Sequence record: PZ445426.1
Source: a phage
Length of the DNA: 58,342 nt
Reading direction: 5' to 3' (one strand)
Both the position numbers and the translations under genes were made by a program. This document shows positions 3,099 to 48,134 of this stretch, one piece after another; position 1 is the first letter of the stretch, and each line of letters begins with the position of its first letter. The notes beneath the pieces were generated by a model. It had not been told where the DNA came from. It made no database searches and saw nothing but the letters and a program-made list of their open reading frames with translations.

Positions 3099-3163
3099 AA
3101 CGAACACGGGGCTGGGACGGCTCAGCTCCAAAAACGTCACACGGGTGACAACGGAGATAAGAA

Positions 3164-42784: not shown

Positions 42785-43249
42785 TTAAGAATATGTGCCT
42801 GTTTGCACAATGTGATTAATAGCATGTGCTCTGAAGATTTCTCTAAAATCTTCAAGTTCTATTGTGGCACGAATTGGTTCCTTTTTAATATAATGATTGA
42901 ACTCATTAATATCAAAGACGGAAGGGTTCATACATATAACAACTTTCCAACCCGCTCTAGGAATCTTATACATTAAGACCGGGATTTTATTACATTCCTG
43001 TGCAGACTTAACAGTTTGCTTCCACCATGTGTTAACAGCAAGAGTTGCATGGTTTTTAATCTCTACACAATATTGGCAAGTATTATCAATATCCGCACCA
43101 CCTACAGCGGATTGATTTTGTCGCCTTTGTGCAATAGGTTTAGGTGGTAACGGTTTACCAATAAGCTTATGCACTTCAGCATAAATATCGTTGAAAAAAT
43201 CGCAGGCTTCCCTTTCAGCTCTCTGACCTTTTTGACGTATGTTGACCAT
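42785..43249 (-). CDS. putative PD-(D/E)xK resolvase-like nuclease
   Basis: ATG 43249; GADIDNTCQYCVEIK resembles a D...E.K nuclease core; weak call. Confidence 0.3.
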   Translation of the reverse strand: MVNIRQKGQRAEREACDFFNDIYAEVHKLIGKPLPPKPIAQRRQNQSAVGGADIDNTCQYCVEIKNHATLAVNTWWKQTVKSAQECNKIPVLMYKIPRAGWKVVICMNPSVFDINEFNHYIKKEPIRATIELEDFREIFRAHAINHIVQTGTYS

Positions 43250-43727
43250 GATTTGCAAATTCCTTATGTAATTCCAATCTTTTAGCTCTAACCCAAGCTT
43301 TAGCAGCTTGTAAACCTTCAGGTGTAAATTCAAAATATTTTGATACCAGAACACCTCTTACATGTAAGTTTGCATAGTAAACTTGAATACCGTTATGTTT
43401 TGTAATGGTTACACACTTGACACCAGTTTTTGAGTCTTTACGAATAACCATATTATAATTGTTCTGTGAACGATCAGCCAGTCTAAGATTTTCTATTCTG
43501 TTATCGTCTCGAACTCCATTAATATGATCAATTATCATGCCTTCGGGGATATCACCATTGAAGTATTGCCATATTAATCTGTGAGCAAAATAAAATTTCT
43601 TATCAATCTTACCTTGGATATAACCATCCTGACGTCTTGTACCAAATGGTCTTTTATTATATCCGTTTTTATTTCTTTGAAATAATTTGCCATCTATATA
43701 AATAAAACGATCGTTTACATTGATCAT
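43215..43727 (-). CDS. HNH homing endonuclease
   Basis: ATG 43727 with AGGAGG RBS; HRLIWQYFNG...IDHINGVRDDNRIENLRL; preceded by a terminator. Confidence 0.65.
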   Translation of the reverse strand: MINVNDRFIYIDGKLFQRNKNGYNKRPFGTRRQDGYIQGKIDKKFYFAHRLIWQYFNGDIPEGMIIDHINGVRDDNRIENLRLADRSQNNYNMVIRKDSKTGVKCVTITKHNGIQVYYANLHVRGVLVSKYFEFTPEGLQAAKAWVRAKRLELHKEFANHGQHTSKRSES

Positions 43728-43774
43728 ATTTACCTCCTTTATACATATTTTAATATGAAGTAAAATCAATCTCA

Positions 43775-43806
43775 ATAAAAAAGCGCAACGTTTTCACGCT
43801 GCGCTT
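43775..43806 (-). terminator. intrinsic terminator (AAGCGCA-loop-TGCGCTT + UUUUUUAUU)
   Basis: read directly in the intergenic region upstream of the HNH gene. Confidence 0.55.
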
Positions 43807-44733: not shown

Positions 44734-44973
44734 TCACACCTCATAATATATACATAAACCAGAAATAACCAGCTACGAAAATAGCACCCGCAAATAATTT
44801 TAAAAGCTCGAACATTGTTCCCTCCGTTAACTTTATGATGTAAGTATAGCAAGACTTACGATGTATGCAACAACTTTAGACTTGAAATACATCTATGAAA
44901 TAGCACGATTTGCCTTTACCTCTGATCCGTCTAGCTGTACTATTAACCCATAAACAGAGCGGAGGATTACAAA

Positions 44974-45198
44974 ATGGTCATGCTGAATAAAGTATATAGC
45001 ACAATGGGCGCGGATTATAAAGTTGTACGTCACCCGCGTACTGGCAAATTTGAAGCATATATCCGTCCAATGGGTGAAGGTTGGATGTATTACGGCACTT
45101 ATGACGACGCTGAGCAAGCTTATGAAGAAGCGGAAAGTGCGGCGGAAGCATCCGAAATTATGGCAAGGTACGACGTCGATGATTACTATCTCAACTAA
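44974..45198 (+). CDS. hypothetical acidic protein (lone plus-strand gene inside minus-strand block)
   Basis: 74 aa; GGAGGA RBS; followed by a bidirectional terminator. Confidence 0.5.
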   Translation: MVMLNKVYSTMGADYKVVRHPRTGKFEAYIRPMGEGWMYYGTYDDAEQAYEEAESAAEASEIMARYDVDDYYLN

Positions 45199-45202
45199 CA
45201 AT

Positions 45203-45230
45203 AAAGGGCCGAAAGGCCCTTTATTTATTT
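45203..45230. terminator. bidirectional terminator (AAAGGGCC-gaaa-GGCCCTTT + T-rich)
   Basis: read directly between convergent genes 44974..45198 (+) and 45225..47561 (-). Confidence 0.6.
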
Positions 45231-47561
45231 GCTTAAGTCTTTGAAAACACTCTCAATTGACTCGTCTATATACCATCCCAACCCCCTGAAATTACGCTTC
45301 AATGCATCCTCACGCGTAACCGGAACAAGCGCGCCCATATCTACAAGTTGTTTGATAGTGAGGTCTGTTGCAGTACCTGCTCCCATCCTGTGATTCTTGA
45401 ATGCTGCTAGCCCGTAGGTTCTGCGTGTGATAGTTGCCTTCGGAATAATACCGTCAACGCGCAGCTCCTTACGATCACATGCAATTTTACCGCCAAGATA
45501 GTCTTTGCAGACCTGACAGATAGCCTTCACACGCGTTTCATCATCACCGCCAATAGTACCTTTTTCCCATGCGTTGATCATGATGTCCTGCCCATGCGTG
45601 ACAAAATCTACCGCCCATTGCATGTGATTGGGTTGAACGACAGGATTGATCCAGTTTTCCCCCACTGCTAACAGGGAGGCGAGACGCAGAGCTTTAAGGT
45701 GAGCACGGTTCCACGGCTGACGAATTGCTTCGTCTTTTGTTGCGTTAATGTGTTCATCGCACAACAAGTTAAACTCCCGCTCAATCCTTGCAGCTTCCGG
45801 GCTTAACTGGACGGTAACGGTCTGAAACTTTGCCATTGTCACTAACGTGTGGTTAACAAGATGACAGACCATGTCCTTTAATTGTTGGGGCATTGTAATT
45901 TCAGGATTCTCGTTTGCAGGAACACGATCCCCTTCATATTGCACAATGTGGAAACGGGACAAGAAACCGTCTTCCATCATTTCACGTGTTAACGCTTCAA
46001 AGAAGGTGTCTGGTGTTGTTTCGCCCAGCACGCTGAACGCCACCCCTTCCATCGTTTTGGTATTATTAGCCTTATCAGAATATCCGATACCGCCAACAAC
46101 ATCCATCGCACCAGATTTTTGATACACATCTGTGATAGTTTGCTTCAGGGTATAGTTTGCAGTGCCAGGTTGAGCCGTTGCCATACCTTTAATGGTTTTA
46201 CCAAACTCACCGTTAATATTCACAAACGAAGTGTGATCCGCAAAACTTTTACGCAAGGCAGGACCGGAAGCATAGTTAGTCATGTCTACAAATTCATGCA
46301 CTTGCGGTAATTGCTCCCCTACTTGCTTACAGATATAGCTGGGCCCAGCGTGAAGCATTTCTTTGCCCACACCTGATCGGGCAATGAGCACAAAGTAACC
46401 GTTCAACCCTGTGTTGGTGATAGTATTCCATACCTTACCGCACACACCAGACAGAAATGCTAACGATGCGGTGATTGCAATTTCTTTAACCGGACGTTGC
46501 GATGCTTTGTAGATGTACTTCGCAAGCTCCCCAGCAAGCCCCGGCGGCCACTCAATAGCGGTTGCATCAATAGACGTACTTTCTGCGACCACTATTTCAC
46601 CAGAAGGGCTAACTGTGGTTACAGGCATCTCTGTTACTTGCTGCATTGTGCTGTGTGCTGCTTGCATACGGGCAGCGTAATCCCGCGCCAGCGCCGCTAC
46701 GTTTTCCTGGGCAATGCGCTCACGCTCCATGCGACCTCGACACATACGCAAGCAACGGTCAATATGAACATTGTTCTTATTAGCCTTCTCACGTTTGCCC
46801 AGTGCACTGTAACGAAATAAACGGCGACATTGCTCATTACTTTCCGTGTAGAATGCATACATAGAAATAAGGGCAAGGTCTGCTTCAGACTGGGAGGGGA
46901 ATCCCATTTCAACCCATTCACCATTAAATAACCGCGCATACTTATCGCCGTTATCTGCTTCAAGTGCACGCTGGTGAATAGTTGCATCATCTTCTACCGG
47001 ATCTTTTTCTACCAGTTCAATTTCATATGTCTTGCGCTGAAGATCAATTTCATTCACAAGCATAGTAAGGTAATGATCACGTTCTGCAACTGGTTTGTTG
47101 TAGACGGGATTACCCGTGCAGATAATAAAACGCTCCTGACTATAAACCTCGACACCATCACGTCGACGACCTTTACCGATGTTACCTCTTAACCACAGGT
47201 GAACACCCAAGCCTGAGCGACTCACTTCGGTGTAAGTATCGAACGCAGTCATGATCTGTTCGAAGCGGCGCAACTGCTCCGGCGTCGTGTGCTTCTTGGG
47301 ATCAGGTTCATTGGTTGCATTCTTCACATCCAGGTCGATGCAGGTGAACGGGTCTTGTGCAGTAAGCACGAAGCCAATATAAGGTTTATTGAAATGAGCG
47401 GCGCAACCTTTGGCAGCTTCAAACGTCATAAGGATATCCGGATCGGTAACGTCCGCCGCCATCAAACGTCCGATATCGTTGTCCCATACAAGCGGCTTTT
47501 TATCCGCATCGGCCACCGCCCATTGTGGGAAAGCTTTAATTTCAGCGGGAAACAGTTCCAT
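45225..47561 (-). CDS. primase-polymerase (Prim-Pol, AEP superfamily) with C-terminal extension
   Basis: Prim-Pol motifs: CIDLDV (DxD), SRSGLGVHLWL (SGxGxH), ERFIICTGN; 778 aa. Confidence 0.65.
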   Translation of the reverse strand: MELFPAEIKAFPQWAVADADKKPLVWDNDIGRLMAADVTDPDILMTFEAAKGCAAHFNKPYIGFVLTAQDPFTCIDLDVKNATNEPDPKKHTTPEQLRRFEQIMTAFDTYTEVSRSGLGVHLWLRGNIGKGRRRDGVEVYSQERFIICTGNPVYNKPVAERDHYLTMLVNEIDLQRKTYEIELVEKDPVEDDATIHQRALEADNGDKYARLFNGEWVEMGFPSQSEADLALISMYAFYTESNEQCRRLFRYSALGKREKANKNNVHIDRCLRMCRGRMERERIAQENVAALARDYAARMQAAHSTMQQVTEMPVTTVSPSGEIVVAESTSIDATAIEWPPGLAGELAKYIYKASQRPVKEIAITASLAFLSGVCGKVWNTITNTGLNGYFVLIARSGVGKEMLHAGPSYICKQVGEQLPQVHEFVDMTNYASGPALRKSFADHTSFVNINGEFGKTIKGMATAQPGTANYTLKQTITDVYQKSGAMDVVGGIGYSDKANNTKTMEGVAFSVLGETTPDTFFEALTREMMEDGFLSRFHIVQYEGDRVPANENPEITMPQQLKDMVCHLVNHTLVTMAKFQTVTVQLSPEAARIEREFNLLCDEHINATKDEAIRQPWNRAHLKALRLASLLAVGENWINPVVQPNHMQWAVDFVTHGQDIMINAWEKGTIGGDDETRVKAICQVCKDYLGGKIACDRKELRVDGIIPKATITRRTYGLAAFKNHRMGAGTATDLTIKQLVDMGALVPVTREDALKRNFRGLGWYIDESIESVFKDLSK

Positions 47562-47842
47562 TATTTACCTTCGTTAGCAATCACTTTTAACAGGGATGTA
47601 ATCACATCCTTAACTTTATCAACAGTGCTGAAAGCTGTATCTAACGTGGCATAGGTGCCAATGTACTGATATTCATCCATGACTCTGATAAATGCGCGGT
47701 ATTGTGTATTTCCACCTTTTAATTCTGCCTCCTGATCCACAGGTTCAAAATAAGCGCATACATCCTCAAATTGTCCTTCTCCCAGCCATGGAGCAGGGAA
47801 TCGAATCATCTCTTTACCTATAAATGGAATTTTTCTAGCCAT
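47561..47842 (-). CDS. hypothetical protein
   Basis: ATG 47842 with GGAGG RBS; stop overlaps primase start. Confidence 0.4.
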   Translation of the reverse strand: MARKIPFIGKEMIRFPAPWLGEGQFEDVCAYFEPVDQEAELKGGNTQYRAFIRVMDEYQYIGTYATLDTAFSTVDKVKDVITSLLKVIANEGK

Positions 47843-48134
47843 AAATCTGTTTCCTCCGCCATTCTTCATATGCTGAATTATTTGCATCGTATACTTCGCA
47901 AGCGTCTTTCATGCTGTCATACAGTCCAAGGAAAGTTCGCCTTGTTTCTCCGCCTACGTCTACCCATGTTAATCGGGCGAGCCATTTACCCGTTTTGTGA
48001 TCGAAAGTAACGCCCTCACGCCCGCTTACATTTTCCCGCGGCACTCGGGGCTTTCGGCGTGCGAGCCCACGACCTTTGAAATTACTGCCCGGGACAGTCC
48101 TGCACTTACGACCCACGACCAACCTCCGGCACAA
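47835..48134 (-). CDS. AP2-like DNA-binding domain ORF (no ATG start; possibly fused to upstream HTH ORF)
   Basis: GVTFDHKTGKWLARL...LGLYDS resembles an AP2 domain; track start is TTG and overlaps the HTH ORF in another frame. Confidence 0.3.
   Translation of the reverse strand: MCRRLVVGRKCRTVPGSNFKGRGLARRKPRVPRENVSGREGVTFDHKTGKWLARLTWVDVGGETRRTFLGLYDSMKDACEVYDANNSAYEEWRRKQIYG

Follow-up and report, generated by a model that had tools for sequence, protein, structure and literature searches.

The lone plus-strand gene in the replication block of a Seuratvirus matches the anti-Hhe factor ORF65 and has a predicted degenerate AP2/ERF-like fold

The acidic 74-aa gene on the plus strand of this phage is, judged by residue identity and position, the orthologue of ORF65 of phage DruSM1, a gene already known as a counter-defence determinant; that assignment is correct but not new. 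Direct inhibition of HheA is ranked above the rival readings and is the most likely one. According to this reading (probability roughly 0.5-0.6), the product would be an early, stoichiometric HheA inhibitor made from a host-type promoter, with its acidic helix and tail placed on a nucleic-acid-binding surface. Analyses were performed on sequence record PZ445426.1 (58,342 nucleotides, here called the window), and all positions refer to this whole stretch unless stated otherwise. The phage is a Seuratvirus (Queuovirinae) with E. coli as host and shares approximately 93-96% identity with several GenBank phages, none of which it matches exactly. Features are listed in Table 1.

Table 1. Features of the 74-aa gene locus and its surroundings (window coordinates)
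Feature	Position	Strand	Details
HNH_3 homing-endonuclease gene	43215..43775	-	among small minus-strand genes; Pfam E 1.7e-22
24-aa hydrophobic ORF MFELLKLFAGAIFVAGYFWFMYIL	44741..44815	-	GGAGGG RBS; first gene of the divergent minus unit
Putative divergent sigma-70 promoter	44843..44871	-	extended -10 TGcTATACT 44851-44843; TTGCA -35 at ~44865-44871
30-aa ORF (DruSM1 PH_ORF69)	44861..44953	+	overlaps promoter region
Conserved 21-nt block TTTAGACTTGAAATACATCTA	44875..44895		between the two divergent promoters; nearly invariant in all relatives
Putative sigma-70 promoter	44915..44943	+	-35-like TTTACC 44915-44920, 17-nt spacer, TACTAT 44938-44943
Shine-Dalgarno GGAGG	44961..44965	+	invariant in all six aligned relatives; annotated RBS in Seurat
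74-aa gene	44974..45198	+	Seurat gp59 / DruSM1 ORF65 orthologue; PHROG 22269
Bidirectional intrinsic terminator	45200..45225		common to 74-aa gene (+) and primase operon (-)
Primase/helicase gene, 778 aa	45225..47561	-	ORF; convergent with 74-aa gene; primase in relatives' annotations
108-aa ORF	47561..47887	-	overlaps 99-aa AP2-like ORF; no family match
Free-standing AP2-like ORF, 99 aa	47835..48134	-	upstream of the primase gene; Pfam AP2 E 9.6e-5

The product of the gene, which starts with ATG, is MVMLNKVYSTMGADYKVVRHPRTGKFEAYIRPMGEGWMYYGTYDDAEQAYEEAESAAEASEIMARYDVDDYYLN (8.6 kDa, pI 4.42, net charge -7), and the acidic 74-aa protein gene described in an earlier sequence-only reading was thereby confirmed. 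Charge is unevenly split: residues 1-43 carry a net +3 and residues 44-74 a net -10. The protein matched the phrog_22269 HMM with an E-value of 5.2e-54, covering positions 1-74 of 74. For the selection estimate, a Nei-Gojobori comparison was conducted with four relatives (Seurat, SA80RD, DruSM1 and one gut-metagenome relative). The dN/dS values were 0.06-0.15. By this measure the gene is under purifying selection and more than a chance ORF, and the values argue for a protein rather than an RNA as the active product. An antisense 102-aa ORF that overlaps the gene and shares the same nucleotides stays open in four relatives; it was not favoured, since the coding signal lies in the plus frame and no record annotates it.

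The window protein and DruSM1 ORF65 are identical at 72 of 74 residues (97%), and the GenBank record of phage Dru_SM1 labels the orthologue 'ORF65 (PH_ORF70)'. The orthology itself was established here by this comparison. In the annotations of all relatives the orthologue, which defines PHROG 22269, is a hypothetical protein (Seurat gp59, CAjan, SA80RD_67, DruSM1 NGRRMQZB_69). Copies at least 95.9% identical were present in 33 phage records at the same position beside the primase gene, and Salmonella phage STP-SP5 carries one divergent copy. For wider distribution, 5.8 billion proteins were covered by a word-indexed protein search. Only 4 clusters at 90% identity were obtained, too narrow a family for deep alignments to be built; a few metagenomic variants also belong to it. 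Three divergent short homologues (P0005, P0007 and P0017; 41-56% identical) were recovered by an exhaustive profile search. Their contigs have the same layout: the plus-strand gene stands alone, ~230 bp of intergenic sequence precede it, and a primase of 778-780 aa converges on it from downstream. The primase neighbour is retained at every divergent locus, and the small minus-strand genes flanking these three loci differ from those of the window. On the evidence of these searches, the ORF65 family is very narrow and confined to one phage lineage. One further match (P0004, on the 1.2-kb metagenome contig k141_29406, L007) was considered as a natural fusion and rejected, as it looks like an assembly chimera. 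On this contig the 74-aa gene occupies contig positions 603-827, and the opposite strand at 1069-1206 holds a 45-aa chimera ending in the same C-terminal 29 residues.

The minus-strand replication block spans approximately 27 kb, and the 74-aa gene is its only plus-strand gene. The description of the gene as a lone one was upheld by the curated record of Seurat, where the orthologue gp59 is the sole plus-strand gene within gp24-gp66. The sequence-only reading had also placed it against the surrounding minus-strand operon. The strand was right, but the gene does not lie within an operon; it fills the space left between one minus-strand unit and the next. From the arrangement of signals, the gene would mark an operon boundary: the terminator that it shares closes the primase operon, and the following minus unit starts from a divergent promoter region at 44816-44973. 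HNH/AP2 genes also lie nearby. The HNH_3 homing-endonuclease gene is present in some relatives and missing from others, which fits a mobile element. The 99-aa ORF is a second free-standing AP2-like ORF and matches the C-terminal part of phage HNH-endonuclease PHROGs; no HNH-domain match was found in it. In some relatives an annotated HNH endonuclease sits at this position.

For the expression signals, the intergenic sequences were compared with those of relatives. The strong ribosome binding site claimed for the gene is present, with GGAGG located 8 nt before the ATG. A plus-strand promoter of the 74-aa gene was placed upstream from conservation, with a predicted transcription start near 44950. 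Its TACTAT element is invariant across relatives, including three with diverged flanks (L006, L008 and L010), and L008 has TAGACA at the -35 position. The putative promoter matches the consensus at 8/12 positions, one below the 9/12 threshold of the scan tool. A literature search for Seuratvirus transcriptomics returned nothing usable.

The bidirectional terminator shared with the primase gene was borne out as well. The hairpin has a perfect stem of 11 bp and a loop of 4 nt; it starts one base past the stop codon of the 74-aa gene, is abutted by the primase stop codon, and is flanked by T-runs (U-rich tracts) on both strands. The RNA folds have energies of -17.3 kcal/mol (plus) and -18.3 kcal/mol (minus), with z-scores of -4.3 and -4.7, and 0/200 shuffles were as good. 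Compensatory stem changes were found in relatives (A:U to G:C in L006, L008 and L010; C:G to U:A in L008), and the Seurat and SA80RD records each annotate the terminator on either strand. In DruSM1 (L003, positions 3100-3147 of that sequence, aligned to window ~45226), a (TTTA)n tandem expansion follows straight after the hairpin. The DruSM1 hairpin loop TTTC is the reverse complement of the window loop GAAA. The suggestion of an independently regulated gene is supported at the sequence level by an invariant TACTAT and RBS and by a covarying terminator of its own, in relatives whose proteins are only ~41-56% identical.

Further upstream, a divergent minus-strand promoter was read from the sequence as a candidate; two blocks in it, TATAGCA and TGCAAC, do not vary among the relatives. 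The 21-nt block between the two promoters is nearly invariant even in relatives with diverged flanks. It was rejected as a repeated operator because it occurs once in the window; it may serve as an UP-like element or bind a regulator. The 24-aa hydrophobic ORF is annotated in none of Seurat, SA80RD and DruSM1. Compared with the divergent relative L004, it shows 8 synonymous codon changes and 1 non-synonymous change, and it is probably a real membrane micro-protein. The 30-aa ORF spans the plus-strand promoter and also takes in the -35 element of the divergent one on the minus strand. It has no RBS and is absent from the Seurat annotation; dN was 0.03-0.11 and dS 0-0.09 (dN >= dS). In view of this substitution pattern and the missing RBS it was rejected as a real gene, and PH_ORF69 is probably the promoter of the 74-aa gene rather than a gene.

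For the phenotype, we relied on a preprint by Ojima et al. that is not peer-reviewed (bioRxiv 10.1101/2024.04.14.589459); its text does not set out the complementation result for ORF65, which is given in a figure. There, 73 single-ORF deletions were plated on the defence-system library of Gao et al. Deletion of ORF65 lowered plating on hhe cells approximately 1000-fold (EOP 1e-3) with smaller plaques and caused a weaker defect on Druantia type I; according to the same preprint, ORF65 is dispensable for growth where the defence system is absent and is one of seven listed anti-defence genes. Deletion of PH_ORF69 is reported there to lower plating on hhe likewise. Since PH_ORF69 is without coding constraint and overlaps the conserved promoter, its deletion should shut off ORF65. 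The two deletions have nothing else in common than that ORF65 is no longer expressed, and this would account for their common phenotype. 'orf65' is also catalogued as anti-Hhe in EVADES and AntiDefenseFinder. The earlier guess of an anti-restriction or regulatory protein comes close: the knockout and both catalogues point to counter-defence, but directed at the Hhe helicase-nuclease and not at restriction-modification of the classical type. The Hhe system consists of one large protein (HheA, WP_032200272.1) that combines helicase domains with a Vsr-type nuclease domain, and defence needs the nuclease site. T7 and Bas63 screens suggest that Hhe responds to consequences of phage DNA metabolism and not to one protein. 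No published mechanism of Hhe evasion was found in the literature searched; a literature search on Hhe counters brought up only unrelated biomedical papers. Bas63 gp130 was considered as a comparable Hhe counter and dismissed; gp130 is a ppl counter, and '(hhe)' in the discussion of the source paper appears to be a slip.

Structure prediction, which had been proposed as a check, gave three antiparallel strands and a long helix in two agreeing AlphaFold2 runs. The first run used a 4-sequence alignment (mean pLDDT 77.8). The second, with a 7-sequence alignment, reached a mean pLDDT of 82.5, with values > 85 over residues 1-60; strands were placed at 13-19, 26-32 and 38-43, the helix spans 46-66, and the stretch 66-74 is disordered. 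For remote homology, the family profile was searched against the PDB, where the plant AP2/ERF factor WRI1 scored best (E 3.7e-6), followed by ERF096 and AtERF1. An hhalign comparison with an independent AP2 alignment gave 96.3% probability (E 1.5e-9) over residues 17-56. All 7 long matches scanned from the exhaustive search were multi-AP2 proteins. The Pfam AP2 model (PF00847) scored 17.3 bits, below its gathering threshold of 33.3 (E 0.0059), and 2 of the 7 family members matched it at E<=1. Foldseek returned nothing significant against the PDB (best E 0.2) and, against the viral BFVD, only the protein itself followed by borderline uncharacterised small phage proteins. As modelled, a degenerate AP2/ERF-like beta-sheet is followed by an acidic helix of some length and then by an acidic-aromatic tail that is disordered.

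The family conserves a basic sheet face (K6, K/R16, R19, K/R25, R31). Family-wide features are an invariant W37, acidic helix positions 47, 52, 54, 58 and 61, and the acidic-aromatic tail. In the alignment to AtERF1, seven presumed base-contacting positions were inspected. R19 and R31 of the window protein match and thus 2/7 are kept; AtERF1 R152, W154, E160 and R170 are replaced by P, T, Y and W, and W172 by Y. Other family labels were also compared. The preprint gives transcriptional regulator SplA as the HHpred label for ORF65 (bioRxiv 10.1101/2024.04.14.589459). Pfam SplA gave no match at E<=1 in the window protein or in any of the 7 family members. Pfam models of Ocr and ArdA were likewise without match, and AcrIIA4 scored 13.8 bits against a cut-off of 27.

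In the proposed mechanism of direct HheA inhibition, the locus would be a self-contained single-gene transcription unit whose own sigma-70-type promoter is read by host RNA polymerase. Translation would proceed from the strong RBS, and the hairpin would stop the transcript and also the convergent primase operon. The AP2/ERF-type three-stranded sheet, with most canonical base contacts lost, would pack on the long, very acidic helix. Soon after infection the protein would bind HheA directly and stoichiometrically, and the acidic helix and tail would fill a nucleic-acid-binding surface of the HheA helicase/nuclease. With this surface occupied, phage DNA would be neither sensed nor cut. That binding is direct, that it happens early and that the acidic segment takes part are inferred. 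Inhibitor-like features speak for this reading, namely a mass of 8.6 kDa, a pI of 4.4, an acidic C-terminal half, acidic and aromatic positions in helix and tail that the family conserves, 2/7 presumed AtERF1 contacts kept, expression signals of its own and dispensability where the defence is absent. DNA mimicry by the protein is put forward as a hypothesis. A bolder version, which we hold tentatively and regard as rather unlikely, is that an AP2 fold was converted in Seuratviruses into a helicase-nuclease inhibitor whose helix and tail (...YDVDDYYLN) mimic ssDNA or an SSB tail and plug HheA. If true, this would be the first mechanism of escape from Hhe, and possibly also from structurally related Mokosh-type helicases; EVADES notes that HheA resembles MkoA and MkoC in structure.

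DNA binding deserves consideration, given that AP2 domains bind DNA and that a basic face is conserved on the sheet. As a free-standing AP2 domain, the protein could bind DNA by sequence or structure and act either as a regulator, at the divergent early promoters or on other genes of the phage, or as a shield on its DNA. In that case the phage would evade Hhe indirectly, with less trigger made or a DNA feature recognised by Hhe masked. The response of Hhe to consequences of phage DNA metabolism leaves room for such indirect routes, and changes in expression could matter, as T7 screens give several DNA-metabolism genes as Hhe triggers. The AP2/ERF homology and fold, the conserved basic residues on the sheet, the nearly invariant 21-nt block adjoining the gene between divergent promoters and the regulator call by HHpred in the preprint all speak for this reading. 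They are set against a net charge of -7, a Pfam AP2 score far under the cut-off, and the retention of only two of the seven presumed base-contacting positions of AtERF1. Furthermore, the 21-nt block is single in the genome, so that no regulon-like operator set exists, and the gene is described in the preprint as dispensable without the defence system. On balance, a regulator or shield is unlikely.

Still less credit is given to the reading that the protein is a domesticated remnant of the DNA-binding domain of a homing endonuclease, without a dedicated role in counter-defence, and that the DruSM1 phenotype is a polar or cis effect on neighbours, the primase operon or the shared terminator. Such an origin is in keeping with weak similarity to the AP2 portion of HNH endonucleases from phages (phrog_99, E 0.003) and with the two HNH/AP2 genes nearby. 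However, the strong purifying selection and the position fixed down to ~41% identity are unlike mobile endonuclease fragments. For a polar effect, one can point to the unannotated 24-aa ORF and the divergent promoter directly upstream, and the preprint itself cautions on polar effects and unannotated small genes. Yet deletion of the ORF alone keeps both promoters and the terminator, the two deletions of like phenotype have only the loss of ORF65 expression in common, and ORF65 is on the list of confirmed anti-defence genes in that preprint. This reading is therefore considered improbable, and direct inhibition of HheA is preferred.

For annotation, the entry 'hypothetical protein' in approximately 35 genomes of Seuratviruses can be interpreted as ORF65, the anti-Hhe factor. 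The gene itself is no discovery; its product offers a way into the question of how Hhe is triggered or evaded. Beyond the literature searched, the analysis adds a degenerate AP2/ERF fold with an acidic extension, from which specific mutants can be designed, an operon-boundary unit with promoter-like elements of its own, which accounts for the PH_ORF69 phenocopy, and the limitation of the ORF65 family to one phage lineage. An unannotated 24-aa micro-ORF beside the gene is also added here.

Among small acidic phage inhibitors of DNA-processing defence enzymes, Ocr, ArdA, AcrIIA4 and AcrIF24 have no significant sequence or fold match to the 74-aa protein. With AP2/ERF domains (PF00847: plant ERF/WRI1, apicomplexan ApiAP2 and the C-termini of phage HNH homing endonucleases) it shares a three-stranded antiparallel sheet followed by a helix and the motif Y-[KR]-V-x-R...G-[KR]-[FY]-x-A-x-[IV]-R...G-T-[YF]-[DE]-x-A-E-x-A. 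Unlike in these domains, the predicted helix is longer and strongly acidic, and the protein has in addition a conserved extension, MVMLNKVYS, at its N-terminus and an acidic/aromatic tail. The base-reading Trp and Arg residues presumed for AtERF1 are mostly replaced. The protein is also free-standing and occurs in a counter-defence context, whereas the AP2/ERF proteins are transcription factors or endonucleases. With DruSM1 ORF65 it has length, locus, strand, RBS, terminator and primase neighbour in common, and the two proteins differ by two substitutions, E51K and N74S.
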